The notes beneath the pieces were generated by a model, which was given only the letters and a program-made list of their open reading frames with translations, had not been told where the DNA came from and did no database searches. The position numbers and the translations under genes are program-made. Shown piece by piece: positions 3,479 through 22,300 of a DNA stretch of 64,000 bases. This DNA comes from Thermoplasmata archaeon. Its GTDB lineage: Archaea > Thermoplasmatota > DTKX01 > DATEUP01. The DNA lies in the NCBI GenBank assembly GCA_041499475.1, contig JBGQKI010000008.1:1978-65977 (forward strand), read 5' to 3'. The stretch's first letter is position 1. Each line of letters opens with the position of its first letter.

Positions 3479-6058
3479 TCAGAAGAAATCCTGCAAGTTC
3501 TTGTCCCTTTTGTCGAGGACGGGCTTGGGTCGGCCCGTGGTTCGCGGGGCCGCCTTCGGCTTTGCGTCCGCGGAGGGCGCGTAAGCCTCCTCGTCGTCCT
3601 TTTCGCCCTCTTCCTTAGGTGCTCTCTCGGCAAAGGCATCGTCGAGCCTCGCGGTGCGCGACTTGACCCCTTTCAAGAGATCGTCAACGCCCCACCCGAA
3701 AACTTCGGTGACGCGGGCGAGGGTCTGCGCGACGCGCCGCGCGTAAAAGTCCCAATGGGGCTCGATCTCGGCTTCCGATTCGGGGCCAAGGTACGGTGCA
3801 AGGTCCTGCTTGCCCTTGGAACCGGTCACGATCCAGGACACCTTCATGCCCGGCTGCACCTTGATGCCGCGTTCTTCGAGCTTCCGCATGACCCGGACGT
3901 TCTGGAGACTTTCGGCGTGTTCTGACTCGTAGTCTTTCACGTCGCGGACCGACCTCGAGATGACGAGCGATGCCTTCGGTACTTCGCCCTTTGCGACCTG
4001 CTCGACCCGTTCCTTTGCGACCCGAAGGACGCCGTCGATGTCCTCGGCAAAAAGGCGCTCGAAGACGGCATTGAGGGCCTCGGATTGCCAATCAAAGGCG
4101 TCGGTCCTGCGCACCTCGTAACCGCGGTAGATCACGTCTTCCCTTGGCCAGAGGATCTTGCCCACGTACCGCTTCTTGGCGCCGTGGCTGAAGAACGGGT
4201 TCATCACCTTCTCGAATTCCAGCGACATGCCGCCTTTCGAGTAACGCTCAGCGACCCGCTTGCCAACGGCGATCGCCCCTTCGAGGTTGGGCTCGGGCGA
4301 CTTGAAGAACACGCTGTCCGTGTCGCTGTAGATTACTTCGAGGCCCTCTTTCTCGAGGTCCTCGATCACGCCGTGGATGTTCTGGCGGGCAAACGCGGTG
4401 ATGCTCTCGCCGATCTTGGGGTCGGTGAACCGGTAGAACGCCGATGCCATCACGCCGTAAAACGAGTTCATCAGAATCTTGACCGCTTCTTGGAGGCCGT
4501 TATAGAATTGGGCCTCCTCTTTGTTCGCGGCCGCGCGCACGCGTCTCTTCAGGTCGTCGCGCTGCGCAAGGAGCCCCTTCAGGATCGCGGGCAGCAGGCC
4601 TGGCCGCTCCTGCGGCGAAAGGTAGGAGGCGCCGTTCGGAGCCTTGATCGCGCCCGACCCGTCGCGCACGAGCGTGGTGAAACAGACATTGTTGGCAATC
4701 ATGATCGAGGGGTACATCGACTTGAAGTCAAGCACGCAGACCCAGTTGTTGAGTCCGGGCTTGAGCGCGTGCACGTACCCGCCTTCGATCGGCTTTTCGC
4801 GTGTCTCGCGCCGGCTCATCGGCACGGCGACCTTCGCACGGTCGGCGGCGCGGATGAGGATGGAGTCGATAAGCGTCGAGGTGCGCCCGTTGATCGTCTC
4901 GTCGACGGGCAGCTTGGCCACGGCGGCCAGGTTCTGGAACTTCTCCATGACGCGCAGGTGCTGGTGGATGCGCAGGCAAAGGACCGAATCCCGGATGCAG
5001 TACCGGACGACCTTGTCGGGGTCGTCTTTCCACTCCTCGTCCATCTTGGAGGAATCCACATCCCCCTTGCCCTCGCCAAAAAGTTCCATCGCCACGGCCT
5101 GGAGGGTTTCCTGTTTGGGGTGCAGCTCGCGCTTGACGTTCCACCAGGTGTCGGTGAGGATGCGCCCCGTCGCCCGCAGGAAGCGGTTCATGAACTCGCG
5201 GAGTTCCGAGCCTTCCCTTGAAAGCGTGAAGCCGCTGAGGCCGACGACCTTCGCGCGCTCGATGAGGTGGGGGATGTCGTAGCCCGCGATGTTGTAGCCG
5301 GTAACGACGTCCGGGTCGAGGTCGCGGACGAGTTGGTTGAACTCCTCCAGGATCTGCCTCTCGCCGCCCTGGAACGCGCCTTCGAGGATCTTGCCGTCGC
5401 CGGGGTCGAATGCGTAGCCGATGCAAAAGACGGTGCCGAAGTCGATGGAGTTCTCGATGTCGAAGCAGAGCGTCGAGACGGCGAGCGTGAAGGGCGCGGC
5501 CGGCAAGAGTTCAACGGCCTCGACCTGGGCGAGCGTGTGGTAGCGCTTGTCCGGCTTGCGCACTTTGCCTTTGATGCGGATGCACGCGCCGAGGTCGTGG
5601 TCGAAGATGAAGCGCTGCGTGAAGATGATGTCCGCCGCAAACGCATGGCCGCCCGCCTGCTGCACCTGCGCGCGCACGTCGGGCGTGTCCCCGGGTTTGT
5701 GGAGCGTGACCTTGAGGGCCGGACGATCTTTCAGGTCGTGGTAAAGGGTGGTCTCCTCGACCTTCACGACGCGCCTGTCCTTCGCGAGGTCCTCCTTCAG
5801 CCCGCTTGGCGGTTCGAGGGCGTAGAAGTAGGGCATGAAGCCCTCGTAGAAGGCGATGAAGGAAAGTCCGTCGCGGCGCTTGCAGTAGAGCTCGATGATC
5901 GGGTGGTCTTGGCGCTCGTCCATTTTGTACGAGGCAGCAAGAAGGAGGGCCTCGGCCTCGAAGTCGGATCCGGGCTTTGGAGCGGGAATGCGGTCGTGCG
6001 CGGGGGCCATCGGGCGGGCAGGTGGCTTGCGCGATATAGGGGTTTGGAGCGCCGCCAT
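3479..6058 (-). CDS. polB: DNA polymerase, family B (archaeal PolB)
   Basis: 859 aa. Exo I motif FDIEN(S). Pol motif A DFKSMYPSIM. Motif B KILMNSFYGVMA. Motif C YSDTDS (variant of YGDTDS). KKRYVG motif. Basic, acidic C-terminal tail ending ...NLQDFF. Confidence 0.95.
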   Translation of the reverse strand: MAALQTPISRKPPARPMAPAHDRIPAPKPGSDFEAEALLLAASYKMDERQDHPIIELYCKRRDGLSFIAFYEGFMPYFYALEPPSGLKEDLAKDRRVVKVEETTLYHDLKDRPALKVTLHKPGDTPDVRAQVQQAGGHAFAADIIFTQRFIFDHDLGACIRIKGKVRKPDKRYHTLAQVEAVELLPAAPFTLAVSTLCFDIENSIDFGTVFCIGYAFDPGDGKILEGAFQGGERQILEEFNQLVRDLDPDVVTGYNIAGYDIPHLIERAKVVGLSGFTLSREGSELREFMNRFLRATGRILTDTWWNVKRELHPKQETLQAVAMELFGEGKGDVDSSKMDEEWKDDPDKVVRYCIRDSVLCLRIHQHLRVMEKFQNLAAVAKLPVDETINGRTSTLIDSILIRAADRAKVAVPMSRRETREKPIEGGYVHALKPGLNNWVCVLDFKSMYPSIMIANNVCFTTLVRDGSGAIKAPNGASYLSPQERPGLLPAILKGLLAQRDDLKRRVRAAANKEEAQFYNGLQEAVKILMNSFYGVMASAFYRFTDPKIGESITAFARQNIHGVIEDLEKEGLEVIYSDTDSVFFKSPEPNLEGAIAVGKRVAERYSKGGMSLEFEKVMNPFFSHGAKKRYVGKILWPREDVIYRGYEVRRTDAFDWQSEALNAVFERLFAEDIDGVLRVAKERVEQVAKGEVPKASLVISRSVRDVKDYESEHAESLQNVRVMRKLEERGIKVQPGMKVSWIVTGSKGKQDLAPYLGPESEAEIEPHWDFYARRVAQTLARVTEVFGWGVDDLLKGVKSRTARLDDAFAERAPKEEGEKDDEEAYAPSADAKPKAAPRTTGRPKPVLDKRDKNLQDFF

Positions 6059-6514: not shown

Positions 6515-7729
6515 TTGCGTGATGATAATGCGCCTTCCTTCAAGGCGCAAGGTAGTCCGGGGGATCGACGGGCCTGGATGGGAGACGTTGAACCCGCTAA
6601 GCCTTTGTCTCTCCCCGCCACCGCCAGCCTCATCCGCGTTCTGGCCTTTGTCGCGCCCGTGCCCCCCTCCAAGTCCCAAAAGGGCGCGGTCTTCGAGTGG
6701 GGCATCTCGAACCTGACGCTGTTCCTCTCGGGCGGCGACCTGCGCGTTATCCGGCCGCTCCCGGACGACCAAGATGTGGACCGGATTCTGACGCGCCTCA
6801 AAGGCCGGCGCGCATTGTTTCTACAGCTGAAAACGCGAGCCTCGATGCGGCGCCGCGACACCCTCGAGCTCTCCTTCCCGCCCATGGCCGACGCCGCGTC
6901 GCGAAAGGACCTCTACCTACTTTCAGCGGAGCTCATCCCGCGATCGCCTTGGGTTGGCTCCCGCTTCGCGTTCATCCCCGCCGCGGCGCTGCCGCGGCCG
7001 AGTCCGAGGGGCGATACGAAGCTCTTCATCCCGCTTTCGCCGGGCTCGAAGAGCAAGTGGGCGCCCTTTGTCCATGACACGGCAGAATTGGCGACGGTTC
7101 TCTCCAAAGTCCTCGACAAGGGCCCCGAGTATCCCTTCCCGCCGCCGGGCGGGCCCTCGGCGCTCGTCCGCAAGCTCTCGAACCGCGCGCAGGGGCACCT
7201 CATCGAGACGGAAATTGCGGGCCACCTCACTTGGTTCTCCGAGGGCCGCCTCCATGTGTGGTCGCCGCTCGTCGACGACTTCGGGGAGGACTTCGTGGTG
7301 GAGGACAGGGACCGTGAAGCAGTCGTCCGCATTCAGCCGAAGGGGACGGTCGGGCTCGACCGCGGGGGAGTCATCCACCTGCGAGTGCATGAGTCGACCT
7401 TTCGTCCGCGCGACTTTGATTTCCTCGTGTTCGCGAACTTCGATCCGGCGGCGGTGGCGATGACGCCCTGGGCTTTTGTGGTGAGGGCGGACGAGTTCGC
7501 GAAGCACGCTCGCTCGTACGAGGGCTACCTGCACTTCGTTGGGCGGCCGAGCCCGGCCTACAAAGGCGTGTGGAAACCATGGCTGTACCGAATCGAGGAG
7601 GTCGCTGGCGTGATCGAGACCGCGCTTGCCGTGCGCAGGGCGCGTGGGCCGGGGGCCAAGCTGCCGGCGAGCCGCGTAGAGGTCAGTACGGCGCGAGTGG
7701 AGATGACGCGCGCCCGCAGGGGCGGCTGA
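6515..7729 (+). CDS. hypothetical protein (404 aa), possible nuclease-like fold
   Basis: Long ORF with protein-like composition, divergent from the 6095..6481 gene. No recognisable family. Possible PD-(D/E)xK-like stretch VDDFGEDFVVEDRDREAVVRIQPK. Start could be the internal Met at 6578. Confidence 0.5.
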   Translation: MRDDNAPSFKAQGSPGDRRAWMGDVEPAKPLSLPATASLIRVLAFVAPVPPSKSQKGAVFEWGISNLTLFLSGGDLRVIRPLPDDQDVDRILTRLKGRRALFLQLKTRASMRRRDTLELSFPPMADAASRKDLYLLSAELIPRSPWVGSRFAFIPAAALPRPSPRGDTKLFIPLSPGSKSKWAPFVHDTAELATVLSKVLDKGPEYPFPPPGGPSALVRKLSNRAQGHLIETEIAGHLTWFSEGRLHVWSPLVDDFGEDFVVEDRDREAVVRIQPKGTVGLDRGGVIHLRVHESTFRPRDFDFLVFANFDPAAVAMTPWAFVVRADEFAKHARSYEGYLHFVGRPSPAYKGVWKPWLYRIEEVAGVIETALAVRRARGPGAKLPASRVEVSTARVEMTRARRGG

Positions 7730-9856: not shown

Positions 9857-11689
9857 GTGTTCCCACAGGTGACGGTGGACTCCTCGGGAAACGCCCTCGC
9901 CGTGTGGCTCCAGGATGACGGGGTGCACACGAACATTTGGGCGAACCGGTACCTGGTCGGGAACGGATGGGGGACCCCCAACGTGCTCGAAACAACCGCC
10001 TTTGATGCAGGTCTGCCCGATGTCGCCGGCGAGGCAAACGGCAACGCGATGGCCGTTTGGGGCCAGACGGACGGCACGCGCTACAACATCTGGGCAAACC
10101 GTTTCGTCGTCGGGACGGGCTGGGGCACGGCCACCCTCATCGAGACGGTCAACACCGCCGATGCCTTGCAGCCGCGTGTGGCCGTGGAGCCACGCGGAAA
10201 CGCCGTCGCGGTTTGGGACATGTCGGACGGGACGCGGTCGAACATATGGGCGAATTACTACACGGCGGGCACCGGCTGGGGGACGGCCGCCCTGATCGAG
10301 GCGGACAACTCGACCTACGCCCGGTCTCCGCAGGTCGCCGTCAGCCCAAAGGGGGACGCGATTGCCCTTTGGTTCCAAGGCGCTGGCGTTGGCAGCACCA
10401 TCCTCTACAACGAATACGTGGCGGATGTCGGGTGGGGCGCCGGCGGCGTTACGGTGGCCGACAGGCCTCAAAGTGTGGGGGATGTAGCGCTGGCGCAGAA
10501 CAACGGTGCCGACGCGACGTGTGTGTGGAGTGAGTGGGGAGGCGGGCGTTTCGACACATGGTCGAGCCACTTCTCGCGCGGCAGCTGGGAGAGAGCCGAG
10601 CTTATCGAGGCCGACAACGCCGGTTCGGTGAGCAACCCCCATGTCGCGATGGACGCGAGCGGGAATGCGTTCGCAGTCTGGCAACAAGGCGACGGCACCC
10701 GGGACAATATCCTTGCAAACCGGTACGTGGCAGGCGCTGGCTGGGGTCGTGCCGGCCTCATCGAGACGGATGGAGTCTTTGCCGCCAGTCCGCAAGTGGC
10801 GATGAACGCCAAGGGGGACGCAATGGCCGCCTATTTCCAAAATGATGGTTTCCGCGAGAACGTTTGGGCGAACCGTTTCGCCGCGCCGGACACAGTGGCT
10901 CCGAGCCTCTCCTTGTCCTTGCCCCTTGACGGCGCGTCGACCAACGTTTCGTCTACATGGGTCGCAGGGTTGACGGAGCCGGGCGCAGCCGTCTCGGTGG
11001 ACGGGTACGCGGCGGCGGTGGCACCCAGCGGGGCGTTTGGGCTCTTGATCCCGCTGCAACGGGGCGCGAACATCGTTACGGTAACCGCCACGGACGCCTC
11101 GGGCAACAGCATCATGGGGTCAGTCACGATCACCTTCACCGACCCGCTCCCAGGCGTTCAGCAACAGCTTGCCATTGCCCAATCGGCGCTTTCGGCGGCG
11201 CAAACGCAAGCGAGTGCCCTCGCCGCGCAAGTCAACGCATTGGGGTCCGAATTGACCGTCGCGCAGACGAACCTCACGGCGGCGCAGGACCGCCTCGACA
11301 CCCTAGCAGCCAACGCGAGCACCACGCAGGCCGAACTCACGACCGCCCGCGGGGACCTCGGGGCGGCGCAGGCGCGCGTGACCGCCCTCGAGACGAGCAT
11401 GACCGCGACGCGGAGCCAACTCGCAGAGGCACAATCGCAACTCACGGCAGCCCGCGCCGACATCAATGCGACGAAGGCGCAGCCGCCCTCGACGGGTGGC
11501 GCAGGGACGGCGACCGACGCGCAGGTCGCTTCGGCGCAAACCACCGGCCTGCTCGGGGTCCTCCTAGGGGTCATTGGGATTGCGGTCGGCGTGGCGGGAA
11601 TGATGATGGGGAGGCGGTCGATGGCGTCAAAGACGGCGCCCGCCTTGAGCGAGGCGCCGCCACCTCCGGCGAAGGAGCCGCCGAAGTAA
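9857..11689 (+). CDS. cell-surface protein: 7 tandem ~46-aa repeats (putative beta-propeller) + coiled coil + C-terminal TM anchor; N-terminal signal peptide lies in another frame (9627..~9810)
   Basis: ORF begins at GTG. Repeat unit ...V(A/T)VDxxGNAxAVWxQxDGxxxNIWANRYxxGxGWGxAxLIE... occurs 7 times. Then Q/A/T-rich heptad coiled coil, then GLLGVLLGVIGIAVGVAGMMMG TM and a basic tail. Frame-0 ORF 9627..9872 encodes a classic signal peptide (FRSAAAIGILGALLTGALPVQAAVKAAG). Confidence 0.75.
   Translation: MFPQVTVDSSGNALAVWLQDDGVHTNIWANRYLVGNGWGTPNVLETTAFDAGLPDVAGEANGNAMAVWGQTDGTRYNIWANRFVVGTGWGTATLIETVNTADALQPRVAVEPRGNAVAVWDMSDGTRSNIWANYYTAGTGWGTAALIEADNSTYARSPQVAVSPKGDAIALWFQGAGVGSTILYNEYVADVGWGAGGVTVADRPQSVGDVALAQNNGADATCVWSEWGGGRFDTWSSHFSRGSWERAELIEADNAGSVSNPHVAMDASGNAFAVWQQGDGTRDNILANRYVAGAGWGRAGLIETDGVFAASPQVAMNAKGDAMAAYFQNDGFRENVWANRFAAPDTVAPSLSLSLPLDGASTNVSSTWVAGLTEPGAAVSVDGYAAAVAPSGAFGLLIPLQRGANIVTVTATDASGNSIMGSVTITFTDPLPGVQQQLAIAQSALSAAQTQASALAAQVNALGSELTVAQTNLTAAQDRLDTLAANASTTQAELTTARGDLGAAQARVTALETSMTATRSQLAEAQSQLTAARADINATKAQPPSTGGAGTATDAQVASAQTTGLLGVLLGVIGIAVGVAGMMMGRRSMASKTAPALSEAPPPPAKEPPK
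9866..10890 (+). repeat. 7x tandem in-frame ~138-bp (46-aa) coding repeat inside the surface protein gene
   Basis: Repeated peptide signature NIWANR(Y/F)xxGxGWGxAxLIE ... PQVA(V/M) ... GNA(M/V/F)AVW, seen directly in the translation. Confidence 0.7.
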
Positions 11690-11725
11690 GGCCACGGGCG
11701 GACTGGCGCTGACTGGGCGCCGCCC

Positions 11726-11983
11726 TCAATGGCCGTAGACATTCCTTCGATGCCCTATGGCAACCACGAAGATCGTTCGTTCGGAGAGCGTCACATCCGC
11801 AATGATGCGCCAGTCGCCTACCCTGAGCTTGTAGCCTCGCGTTCCCTTCAGCGGTTCGAAGAAACGAAGCGGGTCGCCGCGAGATTTCTGCACCCGCATC
11901 AGGATACGCATTTGCACCGTCGCGTCCAAACCCGCGAGGTCGCGCCGAGCCCGGCGCGACCACTCGACCGAAAACTCGCTCAA
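11726..11983 (-). CDS. type II toxin, RelE/ParE family
   Basis: 85 aa. C-terminal motif YKLRVGDWRIIADV...RTIFVVAIGHRRNVY typical of RelE/ParE. ATGA start/stop overlap with the upstream antitoxin gene. Confidence 0.85.
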   Translation of the reverse strand: MSEFSVEWSRRARRDLAGLDATVQMRILMRVQKSRGDPLRFFEPLKGTRGYKLRVGDWRIIADVTLSERTIFVVAIGHRRNVYGH

Positions 11984-12216
11984 AGCCCGAGTTCCTTGAT
12001 GAGCTCAGCGGTGGTGTACACGCGCCCGGCTTTCACGTCGCGCCGCCCTTCGGCCACCTTGGCGGCGAAGGCTGGCGTGAATTCTAGGTCGTCCTCCTCC
12101 AGGATGTCCAGGGCGCGGTTGATCACGTCCTCGTAGGGTTGCCGGGGGTGGCTCTTGTGGCGCGCGATGCGCTTGCGCGTCGCATCGGAAAGCTGGATGG
12201 TCGTTATCTTATGCAT
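11980..12216 (-). CDS. antitoxin (ribbon-helix-helix/CopG-like N-terminus) partner of RelE
   Basis: 79 aa from internal Met 12216 (MHKITTIQLSDATRKRI..., RHH-like beta strand + helices). Stop overlaps the toxin start. TATA-like TTATCTAT 25-33 nt upstream on the minus strand. Confidence 0.7.
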   Translation of the reverse strand: MHKITTIQLSDATRKRIARHKSHPRQPYEDVINRALDILEEDDLEFTPAFAAKVAEGRRDVKAGRVYTTAELIKELGL

Positions 12217-12306
12217 ATGTGGCAGACTATAGTGTACCATAGATAAGAATTCTACGCTCAAGGCAACTGCCGATGCCGGGCGGTGGGCCATTTTGGCGGG
12301 GCCTCG

Positions 12307-12597
12307 TCACTTGCTCGCGACAATCTTGATCACCTCGCCGGCCACAAGCTTGTGGTCGGCGCTCACGAAGCGGCGGTGCCGCGCGTCGATCGTGCGGATG
12401 AAGCGGTTGCCAAGGTCGGTGTGCACCTTGAACGCGAGGTCGCGCGCGGTCGACCCTTCGGTGACGAGGTGCGCGTGGGGGAGGACGCGCCCGTCCTGGT
12501 CGGTCCAGATCCCTTCGTCCTCGAATGGGCGGGTCACTTTTTCCGGTATCCGCTTTGGCGGCTGTACACTTCGTGACTCCACAGGTAGAGCACCCAA
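12307..12597 (-). pseudogene. displaced 3'-end fragment (TGS domain) of the Ygr210-like GTPase gene, copy 1
   Basis: 12306..12487 is ~93% identical at DNA level to 16543..16722 (the 3' end of the intact GTPase gene 16543..17763). The 96-aa ORF matches the GTPase C-terminus (...LPHAHLVTEGSTARDLAFKVHTDLGN.FIR.IDARHRR.VSADHKLVAG.VIKIVASK). The 5' part is diverged and lacks the G domain. Confidence 0.8.
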
Positions 12598-12914
12598 ACG
12601 CGCACGCCCCCGAGCTCCCCGACGAGGGAGTAGTAGCCCCGCCAGCGATCGGCGAGCTCAAAACGAAAGAGATTGGGGATGTCGGGAGCGTAGTCGCGCT
12701 TCAGGTCGGTTGGCCACCTGTCCCGCGCGACGGGGTCGCCCGCCGTGAGTGGGTTGGACCTTGCACGGAACTCAAATGTCTGTAGGCTTTTCAGCCTGGC
12801 CGCGGCCGTTTGCTTGTCCGTTTGTCGCGTGCTACGCCCATCGCGCAGCCACGAGTCCCGAACGGCCTGCGCCGGGGGCGCATAGCTTAACCCGAGGAGT
12901 CTGGGTTTGGGCAT
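12534..12914 (-). CDS. putative ParE/RelE-superfamily toxin-like protein
   Basis: 126 aa. C-terminal NLFRFELADRWRGYYSLVGELGGVRVWVLYLWSHEVY aligns by eye with the ParE core (NLYRLRVGDYRIIY...LVLRIGHRKDVY). Immediately downstream (9 nt) of a small wH protein gene. Confidence 0.45.
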   Translation of the reverse strand: MPKPRLLGLSYAPPAQAVRDSWLRDGRSTRQTDKQTAAARLKSLQTFEFRARSNPLTAGDPVARDRWPTDLKRDYAPDIPNLFRFELADRWRGYYSLVGELGGVRVWVLYLWSHEVYSRQSGYRKK

Positions 12915-12923
12915 GCCGCGGTC

Positions 12924-13184
12924 CTATGCCGCGCGGAGCTTTCGTACGGTGGCGGCCCCCGCGCGAATCCAAAGCACTTTGCCGCCTGGCCCCTCGTCGT
13001 AAACCATCTCGTGTTCGGCCATGTAGTCGAGAGCCTCGTCAAGGAGGGGCGCCGCGACCCGGTTGCCGAGGTCCTTGCGGATCTGATAGCGGCTGAGCGG
13101 GACCGCCGCCTTCCGAAGCACGTCCTCGACGGCGCGCAGGGTGGCCGTGGTCGGCCCACGCGTTACCAGCTGGCTTGTCGACAT
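12924..13184 (-). CDS. small winged-helix-like protein, candidate antitoxin/regulator
   Basis: 86 aa. Strong archaeal promoter: TATATTAA (plus 13208..13215, minus-strand TATA) ~25-30 nt upstream of ATG 13184 inside a locally AT-rich patch. Gene order is that of a TA pair. Confidence 0.5.
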   Translation of the reverse strand: MSTSQLVTRGPTTATLRAVEDVLRKAAVPLSRYQIRKDLGNRVAAPLLDEALDYMAEHEMVYDEGPGGKVLWIRAGAATVRKLRAA

Positions 13185-13207
13185 CGACCCTTACTCACGG
13201 GGCTAAG

Positions 13208-13215
13208 TATATTAA
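13208..13215 (-). promoter_or_regulatory. archaeal TATA box for the 12924..13184 gene (leaderless mRNA)
   Basis: AT-rich island aagtatattaattcattcattaacgaattcg in a 70% GC background. Spacing to the ATG is consistent with TATA at about -27. Confidence 0.5.
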
Positions 13216-13246
13216 TTCATTCATTAACGAATTCGTGTATGCCACG

Positions 13247-13352
13247 CCTCACTTGCTCGCGACGATCTTGGTGAGATCGCCGGCCACAAGTTTGTGGTCG
13301 GCGTTCACGACGCGCCGGTGCCGCGCGTCGATCGCGCGGATGAAGTGGTTCC
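13247..13352 (-). repeat. second displaced copy (copy 2) of the GTPase gene 3' end (~105 bp, no intact ORF)
   Basis: ctcacttgctcgcgacgatcttgg...gatgaagtggtt is near-identical to 16542..16648; similarity decays after ~13352. Confidence 0.8.
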
Positions 13353-13418
13353 CCAGCTCGGGGTGGACCTCGATTTCGCACGCCGTGGGGCGCCATCGCG
13401 GTCGCCTCACCTCGTTCG

Positions 13419-16217
13419 CTAGGGCCCCAGGGGCCGCCCTAGCCGCGGGCTAAGGGAGGCATCAAGTGCGCTCTGGCGTCGTTGGAGGGCCGCCTCCCCT
13501 TCGAGGCCCTCTGGCCAAGCCCCCCCGGAACCGTGGGCACGGCGGCCGTGGTCAAGTGCGGCCTTCACCATGCGAAGCTCGAAGGGCCGCCAACCGACCT
13601 CTTTCCACCCCTGCGAAGAAGCCCCGTACAACAACGCCGCTGCCGCGGGGTCGGATTTCGCGAGTAGGTGGCCGCGCCCCATCGAGGAAAATGCCTCCAC
13701 GACGGGCCCGTCAAGGAATGTGCAAATGTGTTCCAACGACTCGAACCAACCCACGGCGGCGGCCTGGTTGCCGCGCTTCGCGTCGAGTTCGATGAGGCGC
13801 TCCACGGTCACGGCGTCGCCACCCATATCGCAGGGTCTTGACGTCTTCACCGAGAAGCCGTGGGCGGTCTCGAGGAGGGGCAGGGCTTCCTCTTCGCGCC
13901 CCTGAGCTTCGAGGGCGTTGGCAAGCGCGCGAAGAGGGGCGGTACCTGCCCACGACCAATCGAATTCTTCAGCAAGACGAACCAGGTCGCGGGCAATCCG
14001 TTCCCCGGCAACCGGGTCTCCGCCGTCCGTTTCCGCGAGGGAGATAAAGTACAGCGGGTACAGCTGGTAGGAAACGAGGCGGTCGCCGCTTGCCATCGCA
14101 GTGTATGCCGTTTCGAGGGAGTCCGCATAATCCCCGGCGCGCCACTGCACCTTGGCGACCGAAACCAAGTTCCAATTAACCAGGGCGCGGTTCTGAATCG
14201 ACTTGCCGAGGCTCAAGCCCTCGTTTGCGTGCGCGAGGGCCCGCTTCAGGTCTCCGCTGAAATGCACGTAGTGCCACGCGGCGATCGCGTGGGCAAAGGA
14301 GAGGAGCGCCAGGTCGCCGGCGCGCGATGCGAGTTCGAGGCAATGGGCCATGTGCTCGTGGGCCTCCGGAGGGGGTGTAATATGGGAAAGGACAAGTTCC
14401 ACGCGGGCTTGGAGGTTCACGTCCCCGAGCTCGATGGCAAGGGGCGCAGCTCGCCTTGCCCACTCTCCTGCAACGGATGGCGAACCGAACGCGTCCAGCC
14501 ACTTGGCGCGGGTTAGGAAGAGGCGCGCCAGTTGCGCCGGGGGCAGCGGGGGTTCCTTTGCGGCGAGTTGGTCCGCCTCACGCAGGTAATCCGAGGACGC
14601 CTCTGCGTGGGCCGCTTCGACATGGATATCGGCAAGTTGGATGAGGACAGGGGCCACCGCGCCGCGCCCCGCTCCCGAGCGCCGCGCAATCTGCAAGGCC
14701 TCCCGCCCCCGCGCGATCGCGGCGCCGTACTGCATGAGGTCGAAGTGCGCGTCGGCGAGCCCGACCAGGATCGACCCTCGGCCCGCCTCGTCCGTTGCAA
14801 GGTCGAGGGCGCTTTCGAGGAGGTCAATCCGGTACTCGGCGTCGTGGTCCTTGGCGGCCCGGCCCGCCTCGTCGAGCAGGGCTGCGAGCACCGAGGCGCT
14901 CTGGCGCCGGCCTTCCTCCTGCGGGAGCGTCCGGCGGACGAAGTCACGCACCGCGTCGTGCATCGAGACGCGGCCGCGGTCGTCGCGGCGCAACAGCGAC
15001 CGGTTTTCGAGGTCGATGAGGTCCTTCAGCGTTGCGGGCGGGGAAAGGACCACCCGGGGGTCCACCGGACGCCGGACAAAAACGACGCGGGGGAGGAGCG
15101 CGAGTTCTCCGGGCGAGAGCTTGGAGAAGATTTCGTCGTGGAGGAACCGGTCAATGTGCCGAGGGTCGGTGCGGCCTCCGGCCGCTGCACGCTCGGAGTC
15201 GCGCACGAGTTCGACGAAGAGCGGGTGGCCGGCCGTCATTTCATAGACGGAGTCCGTGCTGCCTTCGCGCTTGGCCACCTGCAGGAGGGCCGTTACACCG
15301 TCCCGGTCGAGGCCGGTGAGGTCGAATTCCGCGACCTGCCGTCGGAGCGCGACTTCGCGCGCGTCGTAGACGGGGGGCCGCACGCGCGAAAGCAGGATCA
15401 GCTTGAAGGCGTCCGGCTGCTCGCAGGCCGCCTCGCGCAGCACCCGGACGGCCATCAGCGCCTCGGGGCCGGCCGCCTGGACGTCGTCGACGAAGGCGGC
15501 CAACCGGAGTCCCTTCACGTCTTGGATGACCACTTCACGCGCCCGGGCAAGGTCCACGGGCCCTTCGCGCTTGAGCAGCAGCTGTAGGCGCGGCCGCCCG
15601 AGGGCTGCAAGCAGGCTCGCGGGGGGCTCAAGGATGGCGGTCGCGTTGTCGTACTCGCGTACCCCGTGCCAAACGACCGAACGTTCCCGCGACACCTCCT
15701 CAAACAGCCGCGCGCCGAACGTCGACTTTCCAATTCCGGCAATACCGACGACTACCACGACGGCGCGATCCTCGAGCGCCTCCCGCGCCGAGGCGAGTTC
15801 CTTCGTGCGTCCGAAAAAATATCGTGGTCGGGGCAGGCCCCGGTCCAGTCGGACGGCGCCCCCTGGTGCGGGCGACGCCGGCGGAGCGCTGCCAACGGCG
15901 GCCTTGGCGGCGTCCGGCCCAAGTTCGGCGGCCAAATGGGTCGCCGCCTGCAGGCCCGAGGGCAAAAGGAAGTACGCCTTCTGGTGGCGCTTTGCCCCTT
16001 CGACGGCCGAATCGCGTTCCTCAACAAGGCCGTCTCCGGAGAGCTTCTGCATTTCGCGCGAAATGTGGCCGGTGCGCACGCCAAGGACGGCGGCGATCCC
16101 CGTCTGGGTGAACTCTTTGGGAACCGCATATCGCTCGTGAGACGGGGGCTGATTCGCCAGGTGGAGCAGGATCCGCTCGCGCAAGGTAACGGAGGGCGGG
16201 GAGGAGGGCGCAGTCAA
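13419..16217 (-). CDS. STAND NTPase: N-terminal wHTH + NB-ARC/AAA ATPase + C-terminal TPR-like helical repeats
   Basis: 932 aa. N-terminal wHTH (FTQTGIAAVLGVRTGHISREMQKLSGDGLVEE). Walker A VVVGIAGIGKSTF. Walker B LAAFVDDVQ. Long Ala/Leu-rich helical repeat C-terminus typical of TPR sensor arms. Confidence 0.85.
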   Translation of the reverse strand: MTAPSSPPSVTLRERILLHLANQPPSHERYAVPKEFTQTGIAAVLGVRTGHISREMQKLSGDGLVEERDSAVEGAKRHQKAYFLLPSGLQAATHLAAELGPDAAKAAVGSAPPASPAPGGAVRLDRGLPRPRYFFGRTKELASAREALEDRAVVVVVGIAGIGKSTFGARLFEEVSRERSVVWHGVREYDNATAILEPPASLLAALGRPRLQLLLKREGPVDLARAREVVIQDVKGLRLAAFVDDVQAAGPEALMAVRVLREAACEQPDAFKLILLSRVRPPVYDAREVALRRQVAEFDLTGLDRDGVTALLQVAKREGSTDSVYEMTAGHPLFVELVRDSERAAAGGRTDPRHIDRFLHDEIFSKLSPGELALLPRVVFVRRPVDPRVVLSPPATLKDLIDLENRSLLRRDDRGRVSMHDAVRDFVRRTLPQEEGRRQSASVLAALLDEAGRAAKDHDAEYRIDLLESALDLATDEAGRGSILVGLADAHFDLMQYGAAIARGREALQIARRSGAGRGAVAPVLIQLADIHVEAAHAEASSDYLREADQLAAKEPPLPPAQLARLFLTRAKWLDAFGSPSVAGEWARRAAPLAIELGDVNLQARVELVLSHITPPPEAHEHMAHCLELASRAGDLALLSFAHAIAAWHYVHFSGDLKRALAHANEGLSLGKSIQNRALVNWNLVSVAKVQWRAGDYADSLETAYTAMASGDRLVSYQLYPLYFISLAETDGGDPVAGERIARDLVRLAEEFDWSWAGTAPLRALANALEAQGREEEALPLLETAHGFSVKTSRPCDMGGDAVTVERLIELDAKRGNQAAAVGWFESLEHICTFLDGPVVEAFSSMGRGHLLAKSDPAAAALLYGASSQGWKEVGWRPFELRMVKAALDHGRRAHGSGGAWPEGLEGEAALQRRQSALDASLSPRLGRPLGP

Positions 16218-16542
16218 CGCCAGGGGAGCCGCGCGCAGGACTCATAAGGCTTGCTCCGCGGGGAGAAAGGAGGGTGGAATCCTGGAATCGTCGCGGATTC
16301 CTCCGCACGAGGATCATACCCTCCCCCGGCTAAGGTGGGGATGCCAAGAGGCGAGAAAAATGGGGGTACGAACAATCAAGCTGTTGAGCGTGTTGACCGC
16401 AGTCGTTCGAACGTTTGGGAGCAACGGCGCGAAGCCGGATGCGCGGACGCGCGGGTACAACGCCCGGCAGACGATGGGGTCGCAGGTGCCCTCGTACGGG
16501 ATTTCGTCCACCCTTCCCCCGATGCGGTGAAAGGGCGGCGGC

Positions 16543-17763
16543 TCACTTGCTCGCGACGATCTTGATCACATCGCCGGCCACAAGCTTGTGGTCGGCGCTC
16601 ACGACGCGCCGGTGCCGCGCGTCGATCGCGCGGATGAAGTGGTTGCCAAGGTCGGTGTGGACCTTGAACGCGAGGTCGCGCGCGGTCGACCCTTCGGTGA
16701 CGAGGTGCGCGTGAGGCAGGACGTTGCCGTCCTTGTCGGTCCACTTGCCTTCGTCTTCGACCGGGTAAACGGGGATCAGCTTCAGCCGTTCGAACACGGC
16801 GTGCTCGAGGATACGCTGGACGCCCGTGGTGCCCCACTTCTGCAGGAACTCGCGGATCTTCTCGAGCGCTTTGGCCTGCGCCGGGTTGAGTTTCTCGGGG
16901 TGGGCGACTTCGAAGGTGGCCGCGCCAAGCGCGTATTTGATGATGCCCGCCTTCTCCGCGCGGCGCAGCGCAAGCTCCATCTCGGAGGCGACCGGGAAGA
17001 CTTCCGGCCCGAACTTTTCGCGCATCCAGTCGAGGGTATCCTTGCCGACGAGGTCGCACTTGTTCGCGGCGATGATGATGGGCTTGCCGATCCGCTGGAG
17101 GCAGGCGGCGAGCTTCATGAAGTCAGGCTCCTTCCACAAGGAGGGCTTTGCGGGGAGCGCCGCCTCGCGCAGTGCTGCGATCGTCTGCGTCTTGGTGATG
17201 CCAAGCCCGCCGACCTTTTCGTGGATCGCCTCTTCGAGCTTCTTGCCCTCGAGTTCGATGAGGCGGTGCGTCCGCTCCCACCCTTTGGAAATGATCGAGG
17301 CGAACCAGTGGTGGATTTCCTCCTCGAGGAACGCGACATCTTCGGAGGGGTCGTGACTGCCAACAGGCGCCATGTTGCCGTCGGCGTCGGTTGCGCCGGC
17401 CGCATCGACAACGTGGATTAGCACGGCGGCCTGGCGCAAGTCGTCGAGGAACTGGTTCCCCTGGCCGCGCCCCGTGTGTGCGCCCTTGACTAGCCCCGCC
17501 ACATCGATGAGTTCCACGGGGATGAGGCGTGTGCCGTTGTCGCAGGCCGAGTTCACGGGGTTGCAGGGTTTGCCGATGGCCGTGTGCGGGCATGGCGCGC
17601 GGACGAAGGCCGACCCGCGGTTGGGCTTGATCGTCGTGAAAGGGTAGTTTGCGATCTGGACATTGAGGAGCGTCGCGGCGGCGAAGAAGGTGGACTTGCC
17701 GACGTTGGGTTTGCCGACAACGCCCGCTTCCATCATGGCCTCCACGGTACGTCGCGAGCTCAA
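16543..17763 (-). CDS. Ygr210-like GTPase (Obg/YchF superfamily) with C-terminal TGS domain
   Basis: G1 motif GKPNVGKSTFF. G3 motif DVAGLV. G4 motif NKCD. C-terminal TGS-like domain. The start may be one of the internal MM/M codons (~17733-17736). Its last ~180 bp are the sequence duplicated at 12306 and 13247. Confidence 0.9.
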   Translation of the reverse strand: MSSRRTVEAMMEAGVVGKPNVGKSTFFAAATLLNVQIANYPFTTIKPNRGSAFVRAPCPHTAIGKPCNPVNSACDNGTRLIPVELIDVAGLVKGAHTGRGQGNQFLDDLRQAAVLIHVVDAAGATDADGNMAPVGSHDPSEDVAFLEEEIHHWFASIISKGWERTHRLIELEGKKLEEAIHEKVGGLGITKTQTIAALREAALPAKPSLWKEPDFMKLAACLQRIGKPIIIAANKCDLVGKDTLDWMREKFGPEVFPVASEMELALRRAEKAGIIKYALGAATFEVAHPEKLNPAQAKALEKIREFLQKWGTTGVQRILEHAVFERLKLIPVYPVEDEGKWTDKDGNVLPHAHLVTEGSTARDLAFKVHTDLGNHFIRAIDARHRRVVSADHKLVAGDVIKIVASK

Positions 17764-17921
17764 GAAATAGGCTTCTGCCTTGAGGCGGGGCGATGGACGC
17801 CCTGGCGTTCGGGATCAATTTGCGCCCGCCATGGCTAGGGGTGGTCGCCTATGGTCGCGTCACCCGAAGTCTTGAGGACAGCGTCGCAACTCTAGGGCGG
17901 ATCCCCCCGCCGACACTCCGC

Positions 17922-19310
17922 CTACTCGGGCAGCGTCCCGCGCACGAACTCCAGGAACCGCTTGCTCTGCGCCGCATCGCGCCGCTCGAAGGCGATGTTG
18001 TACGCCCCGTCCGGCGTAATCACGCTCTCGAAGAGGTCGCCAAGCGCGTTGAGGCGCGAGCCGACGTAGACGGGGTCGGGACTTGCAGGCGTGAAGTTGA
18101 TGGAGATGTTGCCGATGTCGGAGTTGCGCATCATCCCGCCATAGACGTACCAGGTCGAGTTGTCCGTGACCGGCACATCGCGCGTCCCGTAGAACGCGAC
18201 GCCGAGGGTGCCCGTGGAGTCGAGCGTAAACGACTGGTAGAACGAATAGAGGAGGAACGGCGTGATGTCGGAGACATTCCAAGTCGCGCCGTAGTCGGTG
18301 CTGCGCCCGAGGTAGAAGTGGCTCCCGTTGGTCTCCCCGCCCGTGATGTCGTTCCACAAGACGTAGACCTGGCCGTTGTCGCCCGCCGCCACGAGCGGGA
18401 ACCCGCCGCTCTGGCCGGTACGGTGGGCGACGACCACCGGTTTGCTAAAGTCCCAGGTGAGGCCCGAGTCGCTCGAAGCGTAGAACCGCATGTCTTGGTC
18501 GGCGGTCGTGTCGGCCTCGTCGAAGATGTAGACGTGGGTACCCATGCGCTCGGCGTCGATTTCGCCCCACCCGTTGCCGGGTACGGGCGTCCCGACGGTG
18601 AACGTCCTGCCGCCGTTCGCGGAGCGGTAGTACCAGTACCGGCCGCCGTTCACTTGCTGGCCGTTGTTGCCAAGGTAGTGGAGGATCCCGCTGCCCTGGG
18701 CCGTGATCCACGGGCGGTCGTCGAATCCCGTGGTCTTTTGGATGTGCTCCGAGTACTGCCACTGCCCCTGGTTGGCCCACACGTGCAGGTGGTTGTCGAT
18801 GAGGTAGGTGTCCACGAAGTAGACGTAGTCGCGCGAGTCGACCGCGATGTCGCCTTCGTCGCCGGCGTAGCGTTCCCACTTGGCGCCGAACGGGAAGGGC
18901 TGCGTCGGCGAGGCCCATGTGGCGCCGTTGTCGGTGCTCATGAGGAACCACGAAGCGAGGTAGGGGTACGACGCCCGGTCGTTCTGGTCCTTGTGGGCCG
19001 TGTAGTAGAGCGCGCCTGTCGAATCGACGGCAAGGCCGGGCTCGTACCCTTCGCCGCCCACCGCGACGACCTGGCCCCATTGGACGTCGGGGCCGTGTGG
19101 GGTGTTGCCGGGCAAGGTGGGCTTTGCCGTGCCGACGCTGAGGGCAAAGTCGAGCCCGAGGCTCCCGACGAGCAGGATCGCGAGCACGACCGCCCCCATC
19201 ATCTGCTGCTTGGGGGTCCCGGGCAGCTTGACGAGTAGGGTCTTGGGGAGGCGCGCGCCGATCGAGGCGGGCAGCTTGAACTTGGGGAGCTTGACCGTTG
19301 GAAGGCGCAT
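17922..19310 (-). CDS. BNR/Asp-box repeat protein (sialidase-like beta-propeller), membrane-anchored or secreted
   Basis: Four Asp-box motifs SxDxGxTW: STDNGATW, SANGGRTF, SSDSGLTW, STDYGATW. N-terminal hydrophobic anchor MMGAVVLAILLVGSLGL (real start is probably the internal Met). Confidence 0.8.
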   Translation of the reverse strand: MRLPTVKLPKFKLPASIGARLPKTLLVKLPGTPKQQMMGAVVLAILLVGSLGLDFALSVGTAKPTLPGNTPHGPDVQWGQVVAVGGEGYEPGLAVDSTGALYYTAHKDQNDRASYPYLASWFLMSTDNGATWASPTQPFPFGAKWERYAGDEGDIAVDSRDYVYFVDTYLIDNHLHVWANQGQWQYSEHIQKTTGFDDRPWITAQGSGILHYLGNNGQQVNGGRYWYYRSANGGRTFTVGTPVPGNGWGEIDAERMGTHVYIFDEADTTADQDMRFYASSDSGLTWDFSKPVVVAHRTGQSGGFPLVAAGDNGQVYVLWNDITGGETNGSHFYLGRSTDYGATWNVSDITPFLLYSFYQSFTLDSTGTLGVAFYGTRDVPVTDNSTWYVYGGMMRNSDIGNISINFTPASPDPVYVGSRLNALGDLFESVITPDGAYNIAFERRDAAQSKRFLEFVRGTLPE

Positions 19311-19370: not shown

Positions 19371-22300
19371 CTAAACCCGCGTGAGGTCGCCGGGCCCTTT
19401 GCCCTTGCGCCGCTCGTCGCTTTCTTCTTTCTCCTTCTCGTGGTCGACGGGCGCCACCTCCGCTTCCTTCCGCCTCGCGACCGCCACGAGCAGGAGGAGA
19501 ATGCCGGTGATGGCGACGAGGAAGATCTGGACCCCGCGGTCGGCGAGGAAGCCGCCGGGCTGGGGAGGCGAGACCGTGACGAGGGTCGCGGCCTGGTTGT
19601 TGCTGAAGGACGACTCATAGATGTCGGAAGGCGGCGGCGGGTTGACCTCAACCGAGAGGTTGATCGACCCGGCAAATTGGGGCGTCCAGCTGAACGAGAC
19701 GGTCTCCTCCCGCCCAACCGGCAGGCTGGTGATCAGCTTCCGGCCGTACTCCTGGCCGTCGACCTTGAAGACGACGGGGAGGCTGCCCGAGAAGGGGCGC
19801 AGCCCCACGTTGGCGACCTTGGCGAGCACCTGCACCTCTTTGCCCGCCTGGGCCGGCCCCGAGAGGTGGAAGGGGCTGACTTGGAAATCGTAGACGAAGC
19901 CCACGGTCGCGCTGATCGACACGAGGCGCGGGGCGCTGTGTGTGACGGAGTCCACGCTGAGGTCGATCTGGAAGCTCTCGCGGTCGACTTCGAGGGGCGC
20001 GGCGACCGAGAGGGTCACCGTGGCGCTTTGGCCTGCGGCAATAGTGAGCGTGACGAGGTCGGCGCCGCTGGGGTCGAGGGCGATCGTGAATCCTCCGGCG
20101 CCCGGCGTCGTGGTGACCGTGTAGGTGTCCTCGACGGTGCCGCGGTTGGTGACCGACAGGTTCGTCGACCGGGTCTGGCCGGGCACGAGGCGGATGCCCG
20201 ACGCGCCGGTCACGGAGAAGTCGTAGCTGACCTCAACGGCGTCGAGGGCAAAGGAAACCGTGGCGGAGACCCCGGAGTCGTTGGCGGAGGCCGCAGTGAA
20301 GTTGATCGTGTACGGCCCGCCGGTCGCGGAGGCCGACACCCGCACCGTCGCGCGCACAACCGCAAGGCCGCCGCGGGGCACGGTCGCGTCGGCCGTTTCG
20401 AAGGAGACCCACGAGGAGCACGCGCCGGGGCCGGAGCACACCGCGGAGAGGCTGACGTTCTCGTCGGCGTTCCCGAGGTTCGAGACCGTGAGGTTGACCG
20501 TGCGGTTCGCGCCGGCGAGCAGGCGGCCGCTTGACGCGTCCTCCGTCAGCGAGAGGTTGCGCAGCACGCCTGCGGTGGCGCGCAGCCCAAGCGAGCGCGT
20601 CCGCACGGGCGGGGCGACCGTCGAACCGTTGAGGGAGGTCGTCTGAGATTCGCCGGGGGAAGCTCCGGGGGGGGCCGTCACTTCGAGCCGGATGAGCGCC
20701 GTCGCGTTTGGGCCAAGCAGGACCGCAGCGACCGTCGAGCCGTTCGCATCGAGGATCCGGGTGCTCCACGCGCCCGACGCGGAAAGGACGATCGTATTGT
20801 TGTTCGGCCCGCGGTTGGTCACGTTCACATCCAAAGTCGCAGTGCCGCCGGGGGCGAGGGCAACGTCGGTGGACGAAAGCGCGGTGAGCAGGAAGTCGTA
20901 CGGCGAGGGGAGTTTGAGCACCATGTCGACGGTGGTTTGGATATCTTCCGAGTAGGCGCAAATCTGCGTGCTGTTCTCGTCGAGGCCGTCGGTGCCGTTG
21001 ACGAAAACGGGGTCGCCGTCAAGGAAGGTCGCGGCGGTGAGCAGGATGGAGTATTGGCCGCCGCCGTCCGTGCTCGTGTTGAGGGCGACGCCCCGGGCCG
21101 CGTTGGCAAGCGAGACGCGGGCCCCGACGACGGGCGCGCCGCCTTTGGTCACGGTGCCCGCGACGGTGAGGTCGCCGACGGGCGTCAGGTCCTTGACCGA
21201 CACCTGGGCCGTGAGGTTGTTGTTCGACTCCGACGATTCGGAGATGAGGTTGCCCGGGTCGACCTCGGCGGTCAGCGACTTGAGCCCCGTCGTGGTGTAG
21301 GTGAAATTCATCGACTGGGTGCCCGTGCCGTCGGCTTCGATGCGCGTGGGGATGTCGGTGAAGGTGCCCTCGACCCAGAAGCGTATGCGCACGCTCGAGA
21401 TCGGCGCGTTTTGGGCCGCGTTGGCGATGGTCACCTTGATCCGGGAGGATTCGCCCTGGATCAGCCGCGGCGACCCGAAGAACGCCTCGCCCCCGCACTG
21501 GCGGTAGAATTGGATCGAGGTCACGACGAGGTCGGGGACCACGACGGTGGTGAAGAGGGTGGCCGTGTCGTTGCGCTGGGTGTCGTTCTGCGAGCGGGCG
21601 GTGATGGTGACCGTCGAGTTTTCGCCCTGCGAGGCAAACGACGGGGCGCGCACCGTGACGGCAAAGGTGCCGCGGGCGGTGGCGGGCAGCGCGATCGTCT
21701 TGCGCGTGAGGGTCACGGTCCAGCCCGCGGGCGGCGTGCTGTTGGTGAGGTCGAGGGTGTCCGGCGAGTTGCCCGAGTTGATGACATCGAACGAGTAGAT
21801 TGCCGTGTCGCCCGCGGTGACGTTGGCCGACGCGGAGGCGGGGTAAAGGGAGACGCCGTACTGGCCGCCGATGATGATGGTGAATACGATCCTCGCCGTG
21901 TTGCGCGCCGAGTTCTGCGATACGCCGGTGACGACGATGTCGTACTCGCCTTGGGTCGCAAACGAGTCGGTCGTGATCGAGACGAACGAGGTGTTCGTGT
22001 CGCCGGCCGTGCCGGCGGGCGTTAGCGTAAGGTTCCGGGGGTTCAGGCTGCCGCTCCAGTTGACGGGGAGCGCGCCGACCGAGATGTCGACGAGGTTGTC
22101 CTGCGTCCCTTCGGAGACCGCGTTGAGGATGAACGCGTAGGCGAAGCCGGGCTGGACGGCCGTGCGGTTAACGGGCGATTCGAACCTGAACCCGAAGAGC
22201 GAGGTCACATTCACGATCACCACGGCGGTGTTGTTGCTCTCGTCGATCTCCTCGATCGTATTGTTGGGGTCCGCGACCACGCGCAGCGTCCTCGCTCCCC

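Follow-up and report, generated by a model that had tools for sequence, protein, structure and literature searches.

Results

A stretch of 64,000 nt from contig JBGQKI010000008.1 of a Thermoplasmata archaeon (GenBank assembly GCA_041499475.1), hereafter called the window, carries the gene for a 932-aa STAND ATPase in which an N-terminal winged helix-turn-helix (wHTH) domain precedes a nucleotide-binding oligomerisation domain (NOD) and a long TPR-like sensor. Read in the orientation of the Obg-like GTPase gene that lies ahead of it, the locus consists of the intact GTPase, a 325-nt spacer, the STAND gene, a displaced copy of the GTPase 3' end (copy B), an 86-aa and a 126-aa gene, a further displaced copy (copy C), DUF7557, ParE, a 610-aa Glucodextran_B protein, MFS_3, a 404-aa open reading frame (ORF), a PaREP1-like 128-aa ORF and a family-B DNA polymerase (PolB; Table 1). 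An earlier note made from the letters alone had read the gene as an NB-ARC-type switch, perhaps related to antiviral STAND (Avs) proteins, carried as cargo of an insertion hotspot. We propose that its product is probably a transcription regulator within the PH0952 clade of STAND ATPases, one that an inducer activates and that works as an oligomer, with autoregulation possible. The gene lies in an insertion-prone interval between GTPase and PolB yet has been inherited together with the GTPase. Loci from other genomes are numbered with the prefix L.

Table 1. Features of the STAND locus in the window, with the loci used for comparison
Feature	Position	Strand	Remarks
wHTH-NOD-arm-TPR STAND gene	13419..16217	minus	932 aa/codons; most upstream start is TTG
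MarR/ArsR-like N-terminal wHTH, residues 12-99	15921..16184	minus	three helices, beta wing, one more helix
STAND NOD, residues 126-436: nucleotide-binding domain (NBD), helical domain (HD), winged-helix domain (WHD)	14910..15842	minus	motifs invariant in 18 members; aligned with PH0952
Pre-P-loop motif FFGRxxEL	residues 134-141	minus	NOD
Walker A GIAGIGKST	residues 158-166, nt 15720-15746	minus	NOD
Walker B FVDD, D244 and D245	nt 15477-15503	minus	NOD
Sensor-1 R278; GHPL, residues 330-333; WHD H420 within MHDAVRDFV			NOD
Arm and long TPR-like sensor, residues 437-921, ~22 helices	13455..14909	minus	TPR_12; TPR_MalT below cut-off; AlphaFold2 (AF2)
AF2 segment, wHTH with beta wing	residues 12-99		
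AF2 segment, disordered linker	residues 110-120		
AF2 segment, alpha/beta NBD	residues 138-300		
AF2 segment, HD	residues 305-340		
AF2 segment, WHD	residues 353-430		
AF2 segment, helical repeats without interruption	residues 433-921		
TATA-like box CTTATGA, GCAAGC before it	16242..16248	minus	~28 nt ahead of start codon
Candidate operator GGAGGAATCC-N7-TTCC-N4-TTCC	16274..16304	minus	at -87; two mismatches to subfamily site
Obg-like (YGR210/YchF-type) GTPase with TGS domain	16543..17733	minus	Pfam YGR210-like_G4, MMR_HSR1, TGS
Repeat copy A, intact GTPase 3' end	16543-16767	minus	
Displaced copy B of GTPase 3' end	13245..13373	minus	129 nt, 91%; frame lost upstream
Displaced copy C of GTPase 3' end	12307..12529	minus	223 nt, 92%; TGS-domain reading frame kept
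Two-gene cassette, 86 aa and 126 aa	12534..13184	minus	between copies B and C; no family match
DUF7557 (antitoxin-like) and ParE toxin pair	11726..12291	minus	
PolB	3479..6058	minus	ancestral direct downstream neighbour of GTPase
Loci with side-by-side paralogs	L004:10001-16051, L006, L012, L017, L018, L021, L028, L041, L045, L069, L073		
Loci with Ras/Roc-like neighbour	L013, L017, L026, L031 (1262-2137), L041, L045, L060		
Adjacent GTPase-PolB, GTPase 80% identical	L092, L093		
Adjacent GTPase-PolB, GTPase 54-58% identical	L096, L098, L099, L100, L105, L108, L111, L124		

Gene and domain architecture

The window has a G+C content of ~66%. The STAND ORF is a real gene and no chance high-G+C frame, because its G+C at third codon positions (GC3) is 0.79, the value at second positions (GC2) is coding-like, Pfam families match its product and full-length homologs of ~930 aa exist. 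Both motifs quoted in the earlier note were found in the translation, GIAGIGKST at residues 158-166 and LAAFVDDVQ at residues 239-247. Pfam searches returned HTH_Crp_2 at residues 15-68 (27.6 bits against a cut-off of 27), AAA_22 at residues 150-275 (27.8 bits, cut-off 27) and TPR_12 (E=2.3e-12); AAA_16 (E=1.2e-6, 29.6 bits) stayed slightly below its cut-off of 32.6, as TPR_MalT (E=8.8e-6, 25.6 bits) stayed under its own of 45. NCBIfam gave weak matches only, of ArsR/MarR and TPR type, and the Pfam scan found no LuxR/GerE-type match in the protein. The winged helix and the long sensor arm that had been read from the sequence are thus both borne out, and the NB-ARC label is not. Pfam NB-ARC (PF00931) missed its threshold (10.4 bits versus 23.5, E=0.39) with a match confined to the P-loop at residues 149-176, and it was reached at E<=1e-3 in just 2 of 18 family members.

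These 18 members were aligned in order to define the conserved positions. Within the NOD, FxGR, G158, G161-S165, D244, D245, R278, G330-H331-P332-L333 and H420 are invariant. The protein has the features that define the STAND superfamily, namely a P-loop NBD with Walker A, an hhhhDD Walker B and a sensor-1 arginine, followed by an HD with GxP and a WHD with a conserved histidine (H420) of the nucleotide-contacting type. Within the wHTH, the invariant residues are L18, H19, L20, Q38, G40, L59, R68, Y82, L84 and G88, and the recognition-helix region is kept family-wide. An AlphaFold2 model of the full-length protein was built on the same alignment (predicted local distance difference test, pLDDT, 87; predicted template modelling score, pTM, 0.68), and the 112 N-terminal residues were also modelled separately (pLDDT 84). 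When this N-terminal model was compared with the PDB using Foldseek, the top 50 matches were almost all wHTH regulators of the MarR/SlyA/ZitR/MepR/DtxR/HxlR type, DNA-bound structures of MepR and MarR among them. The N-terminus is therefore predicted to be a wHTH of the DNA-binding type and no enzymatic effector, which answers the structural check proposed in the earlier note.

Between the window and the 88%-identical ortholog in L002, the overall ratio of nonsynonymous to synonymous substitution rates (dN/dS) is 0.16, with 0.09 for the wHTH, 0.08 for the NOD and 0.17 for the TPR arm. The gene evolves under purifying selection; the TPR arm is its fastest-evolving part and the wHTH is near the lowest. 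These values bear on the proposal that the wHTH serves protein contacts instead of DNA binding, as in a scaffold or chaperone-like ATPase, or that the gene is a decaying passenger. DNA binding is unproven across the clade, and matches of the wHTH to PDB sequences are weak (E=3e-3 or worse). Against a non-DNA-binding domain stand its near-lowest dN/dS, the family-wide conservation of the recognition-helix region and the DNA-bound MarR-type regulators among its structural matches; against decay stand an intact ORF and the invariance of all catalytic residues. We regard both variants as very improbable.

Relationship to PH0952

A profile of the whole family matched PDB entry 6mfv, the tetratricopeptide repeat sensor PH0952 of Pyrococcus horikoshii, at 1.4e-48, with profile positions 156-740 aligned onto 6mfv residues 9-595. 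The single sequence searched with phmmer reached the same entry at E=2e-11 over query residues 128-436, which is the NOD only, with every NOD motif aligned. A profile restricted to the NOD gave 4.3e-39 for 6mfv, followed among STAND structures by Apaf-1 (1.8e-3) and plant NLRs (~4e-3); no Avs, AfsR or MalT NOD appeared at E<=1 in this search of the PDB, and AfsR structures were absent from the PDB searches with the whole-protein and NOD-only profiles alike. Foldseek comparison of the full model also placed 6mfv first (1.8e-16 over 708 columns, 18% identity across the aligned model), with the MalT-system entry 8bob_C at rank 4. Since the NOD profile, the motif alignment of the single sequence and the top fold match all lead to PH0952, the 932-aa protein belongs to the PH0952 clade of STAND ATPases.

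PH0952 is itself a predicted transcription factor (Lisa et al. 2019; PMC6468293). Its crystal structure is a closed, ADP-bound monomer in which WHD His382 (H382) touches the ADP phosphates (PMC6468293). In the published phylogeny, the PH0952 clade is sister to the APAF1 clade and the MalT clade is basal to the PH0952-APAF1 assemblage; the PH0952 clade is termed there a 'missing link' between MalT and Apaf-1 (PMC6468293). The functional type assigned earlier, a signal-transducing STAND switch in the manner of MalT or AfsR, thus survives in the wHTH-STAND-TPR architecture, with the NOD reassigned from NB-ARC to the PH0952 clade.

Size and distribution of the family

An exhaustive profile search of 1.84 billion representatives (50%-identity clusters) recovered 2,574 family representatives at E<=1e-30. 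The top 150, most of them ~900 aa long, align from the first profile positions and thus include the N-terminal domain. Relatives are encoded at no fewer than 324 genome loci (at least) in GTDB contigs sampled at one genome per species. A word-indexed search had suggested a rare family with ~20 full-length relatives, and this idea was overturned by the two larger counts. The best 80 of these at least 324 loci all belong to Thermoplasmatota (Thermoplasmata, Methanomassiliicoccales, Poseidoniales), at G+C contents of 34%-72%, and several genomes hold more than one family copy. Members of the query's 90%-identity cluster bear the JGI label 'DNA-binding MarR family transcriptional regulator / TPR repeat protein', and a near-identical locus (99.9% nt) is present on contig JBGQIH010000019 of metagenome-assembled genome GCA_041498395.1. 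The neighbouring PolB and YGR210/YchF-type GTPase genes point to an archaeal genome. IMG/VR viral contigs held no true family member, only matches of 42-78 aa at the level of Walker A, and PLSDB plasmids held no family member.

After L002, the closest homologs (41-44% identity; L003, L004, L006-L010) share one mutually conserved chromosomal position in at least six genomes, preceded by a radical-SAM/SPASM gene or the shikimate operon and followed by fumarase, FAD-linked oxidase and MarR genes. Other sub-groups have their own stable synteny beside EndoIII-like, metallo-beta-lactamase-fold or Ras/Roc-like genes. The SPASM/fumarase/FAD-oxidase locus is absent from the window, as is a second paralog. 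Homologs are accordingly not always island-borne, a possibility that the earlier note had raised; sub-groups hold stable chromosomal positions near housekeeping genes. Overall, the family looks like a set of chromosomal regulators that has expanded and of which one landed in the gap between GTPase and PolB.

Two wHTH-STAND-TPR paralogs stand side by side, in tandem or divergently, in 11 of 87 loci, an arrangement that suggests local duplication or possibly hetero-oligomeric pairs. At seven loci, the family member has as its neighbour a small GTPase of the Ras/Roc-like type (291 aa; Pfam Ras, E=1e-24), which mostly lies directly upstream on the same strand and may be a functional partner in one sub-group.

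This distribution also bears on a defence role. In an Avs-like system, the TPR arm would sense a viral protein and oligomerisation would put the wHTH to work in defence, for example by activating the toxin-antitoxin (TA) cassettes nearby or by blocking viral DNA. The variable interval beside ParE/DUF7557, the 86-aa and 126-aa pair and the PaREP1-like gene would suit such a system, as would the STAND plus long TPR layout, with EfAvs5 and Avs4 as distant fold matches of the full model (Foldseek ranks 35 and 48), and the faster evolution of the TPR arm than of the remaining protein. However, the arm's dN/dS of 0.17 speaks for purifying selection and not for diversification, and the best PADLOC match was PDC-S73 (E=8.6e-4) over 39 P-loop residues, so that no defence model fits. 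The N-terminus is predicted to bind DNA through a MarR-like domain and is no effector of the nuclease, protease, SIR2 or TIR kind, the closest homologs sit in stable synteny among fumarase, shikimate pathway, radical-SAM/SPASM and EndoIII genes, and the NOD-only profile that found PH0952 at 4e-39 found no Avs structure at E<=1. With viral and plasmid members also lacking in the collections named above, we consider the defence role put forward in the earlier note unlikely.

Upstream region and candidate operator

The region ahead of the STAND gene was aligned between the window, L002 and the 41-44% homologs, the last of which lie in an unrelated genomic context. A block of ~150 nt ahead of the start codon is ~97% identical between the window and L002 (hand count of the alignment), versus ~85% for coding DNA. 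The TATA-like box of the window has counterparts in L003, L007, L008 and L010, where CAAnnTTTATGA or TTTAATG stands ~30 nt ahead of the ATG. We regard this CTTATGA/CAAnnTTTATGA element as a putative BRE/TATA-like promoter (BRE, transcription factor B recognition element). A leaderless mRNA is suggested, because the box lies only ~28-30 nt ahead of the start codon.

A GGAA/TTCC palindrome followed by a further TTCC half-site lies ~40 nt upstream of the BRE/TATA element and within the ~150-nt conserved block. An exact GGAA-N2-TTCC-N7-TTCC occurs at -82 to -118 in 6 of the 6 closest-subfamily loci (L003, L004, L007, L008, L009 and L010), and none of the 53 upstream regions taken from more distant paralogs has it; the background density of the site is 0.007 per 300 nt. 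The motif goes with the gene across two unrelated genomic contexts. Archaeal activators usually bind upstream of BRE/TATA. The GGAA/TTCC site is thus a candidate operator, plausibly an autoregulatory one.

The GTPase-PolB interval

The GTPase, whose cluster carries the JGI name 'ribosome-binding ATPase YchF', is separated from PolB by 10.5 kb in the window. Metagenomes were scanned with the GTPase, and PolB was located by tblastn, in order to assemble comparison loci. In 10 related loci, whose GTPases are 54-80% identical to that of the window, PolB follows the GTPase directly (with an overlap or a gap of <=40 nt), and this adjacency is the ancestral state. No STAND gene lies downstream of the GTPase in loci with GTPases 74-82% identical, nor in L089-L125. 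The 10.5-kb interval is therefore a lineage-specific insertion zone, because GTPase and PolB are adjacent in the 10 loci and STAND is not found downstream there. In L089 (GTPase 82%), a gap of ~1.1 kb between the two genes holds a DUF7557 ORF and a second, 171-nt copy of the GTPase end (L089:6339-7660).

Copies A, B and C of the GTPase 3' end all finish exactly at the TGA and diverge at once thereafter, and copy B begins 46 nt beyond the STAND stop codon. The copies make up a tandem array in which each GTPase end precedes a self-contained cargo, and L089 has a single unit of this kind, with its DUF7557 ORF. The STAND gene is bracketed by copies A and B, as the earlier note had said, and relatives lack it at this site, as expected of island cargo. 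The TA modules reported beside it are likewise present, as the DUF7557-ParE pair and the TA-like pair of 86-aa and 126-aa genes. Each copy also contains a near-palindrome of 24-26 nt (GCCGACCACAAGCTTGTGGCCGGC, centre AAGCTT; 16572-16597, 13278-13303 and 12336-12361). It is not claimed as a recombinase core; it codes for ADHKLVAG and is partly conserved in relatives without insertions.

No integrase, recombinase or mobility gene lies within ~10 kb on either side of the STAND gene, and searches of Pfam, PHROGs and PDB sequences with the 404-aa, 128-aa, 86-aa and 126-aa ORFs found no integrase in the island. The PaREP1-like ORF (6095-6481, minus; E=9e-5, slightly below the Pfam cut-off) and the 404-aa ORF (6515-7729, plus) sit between MFS_3 and PolB, within the insertion zone. 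The latter has no match in Pfam, PHROGs or PDB sequences and a 63%-identical homolog in L002. Look-ups with the exact window protein, a 921-aa variant and P0172 returned no strain-level variants of the island. An Rfam scan of 11500-18000 gave one sub-threshold glycine-riboswitch match within coding sequence, which was taken as chance.

The 86-aa and 126-aa genes, which have no family match in Pfam or PHROGs, lie in a 709-bp block with the same boundaries in two genomes (window 12532-13240, L002:15633-16341). The block begins with a palindromic, AT-rich promoter region (GAATTCGTTAATGAATGAATTAAT) and finishes at the second gene's stop codon. Its insertion sites differ, lying behind a GTPase-end copy in the window and, in L002, at the MFS_3 3' end. 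Nucleotide identity between the block copies is 74.6%, versus ~85% for their flanks. This cassette is possibly a novel TA-like mobile module.

The interval could be read as a whole as an integrase-less, lineage-specific array of cassettes that target a gene end, each unit consisting of a GTPase 3' end with self-promoted cargo, in which the STAND protein controls the stacked stress or defence cassettes. The proposed cargo units would be the STAND regulator, the 86-aa and 126-aa pair and DUF7557-ParE. We consider this array scenario doubtful at best.

The upstream side of the GTPase holds, on the minus strand, a 1,568-aa CARDB/FG-GAP/Ig-like surface protein (19371-24077) and a 462-aa BNR-repeat protein (17922-19310). 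This side is also variable, since L092 and L093 have no BNR gene between the GTPase and the large surface protein.

Co-inheritance with the GTPase

The ortholog in L002 occupies the same GTPase junction, and the two genomes are collinear at ~85% nt across GTPase, spacer and STAND. The L002 locus has no GTPase-end repeats, and the genes distal to STAND differ from those of the window. The synonymous divergence (dS) between window and L002 is 0.48 for STAND and 0.66 for the flanking GTPase. The STAND copy is no recent arrival, because its dS is not above that of the GTPase, and it has been inherited together with the GTPase since the window genome and L002 diverged.

The gene might on these grounds be taken for a core, vertically inherited regulator of the GTPase/PolB locus, with the flanking repeats incidental and no cargo involved. 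The collinear junction in a second genome, intergenic region included, a dS similar to that of the GTPase and the presence of the 90%-identity cluster in several independent assemblies all favour it. It is hard to square with the adjacency or overlap of GTPase and PolB in 10 loci with GTPases 54-80% identical, the absence of a downstream STAND gene at 74-82% GTPase identity, the displaced GTPase 3' end that brackets the gene, and the unrelated locus occupied by the closest homologs with the same promoter motif. A core regulator in this sense is improbable, and the data point to a STAND gene at the GTPase junction only in the lineage of the window and L002.

The STAND gene is accessory by position. 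The earlier reading of the gene as hotspot cargo and not a core regulator holds as far as the insertion zone is concerned; the gene has nevertheless been co-inherited with the GTPase. Core-genome synteny of close homologs, which that note had named as evidence against cargo, was found in part, at the same junction in L002 and at the fixed position of the 41-44% homologs.

Discussion

We favour an inducer-activated regulator of the PH0952 clade, and a mechanism for it can be outlined, by analogy, from the account of PH0952, MalT and Apaf-1 in PMC6468293. At rest, the protein would be a closed monomer with ADP clamped between the P-loop and WHD His420, while the TPR arm, folded back on the NBD, would impose autoinhibition. 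Binding of a small-molecule or protein inducer to the long TPR sensor would release the autoinhibition and open the NOD. Exchange of ADP for ATP would follow, and then assembly of head-to-tail NOD oligomers. Oligomerisation could cluster the MarR-like wHTH domains for binding to repeated GGAA/TTCC half-sites, thereby modulating transcription. Among possible targets, the promoter of the gene itself is the best candidate, and the position of the site is consistent with (auto)activation. It is by this analogy that we infer a nucleotide switch, oligomerisation, DNA binding at the motif and autoregulation.

Several points weigh against this reading. The regulatory function would be transferred from architecture and from the mechanics of MalT and Apaf-1, and we know of no PH0952-clade member for which a DNA target, an inducer or an in vivo role has been demonstrated. 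Defence genes do occur in contexts of this kind, among TA-like cassettes. The clustered ORFs of 87 loci contain no family-wide conserved neighbour or operon that would point to a regulon; synteny is confined to sub-groups. The site in the window departs from the palindrome at two positions, and the GGAA/TTCC motif could be bound by another factor. A search of the window with the relaxed operator pattern finds it a single time, a count that 27 of 100 shuffles also reach and that is not significant alone. The weight given to the operator comes from cross-locus conservation and not from the occurrence in the window.

The value of these results is mostly corrective. The protein is neither an NB-ARC nor an Avs-type defence protein but a member of a large, already described archaeal family of predicted STAND transcription factors, and is itself ordinary. 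The GGAA-N2-TTCC-N7-TTCC site offers a concrete, testable candidate operator for the PH0952 clade. Copies of the GTPase end, stacked one behind another, mark a site of recurrent insertion in uncultivated Thermoplasmatota, with no recombinase visible.

Comparison with known systems

AfsR/SARP-type and GutR-type regulators of the AP-ATPase/NB-ARC clade share the layout of the 932-aa protein, with a DNA-binding domain at the N-terminus, a STAND NOD after it and TPRs at the C-terminus. AfsR combines an OmpR-type wHTH with BTAD and a bona fide NB-ARC, whereas the query misses the NB-ARC threshold (E=0.39) and has no BTAD. Avs proteins share the STAND NTPase and the long C-terminal TPR-like sensor, but their N-terminal effectors are enzymatic where the query has a wHTH. 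MalT of E. coli is similar in that a STAND NOD and TPR sensor control a DNA-binding effector, with oligomerisation on repeated sites; its HTH is of the LuxR type and C-terminal, in contrast to the N-terminal MarR-like wHTH of the query, which does not qualify as a MalT/LAL protein.

The closest known system is PH0952. The two come from different hosts, Thermoplasmatota and Thermococci, and their direct sequence similarity is low. The query sensor, with ~22 helices to residue 921, is about twice that of PH0952, a ~750-aa protein with six TPRs and a cap (PMC6468293). The N-domain of PH0952 is missing from the crystal structure, and the wHTH of the query is therefore likened to it by domain type and not by direct comparison. 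Like the query, PH0952 has an ArsR/MarR-like wHTH followed by NBD-HD-WHD, an arm and a TPR sensor. The NOD motifs FxGRxEL, GIAGIGK[ST], hhhhDD, [ST]R, GHPL and HDxVR[DE]FVR are common to both proteins, and the GHPL and H420 motifs of the query align with GHPL and VHDMVREF of PH0952.

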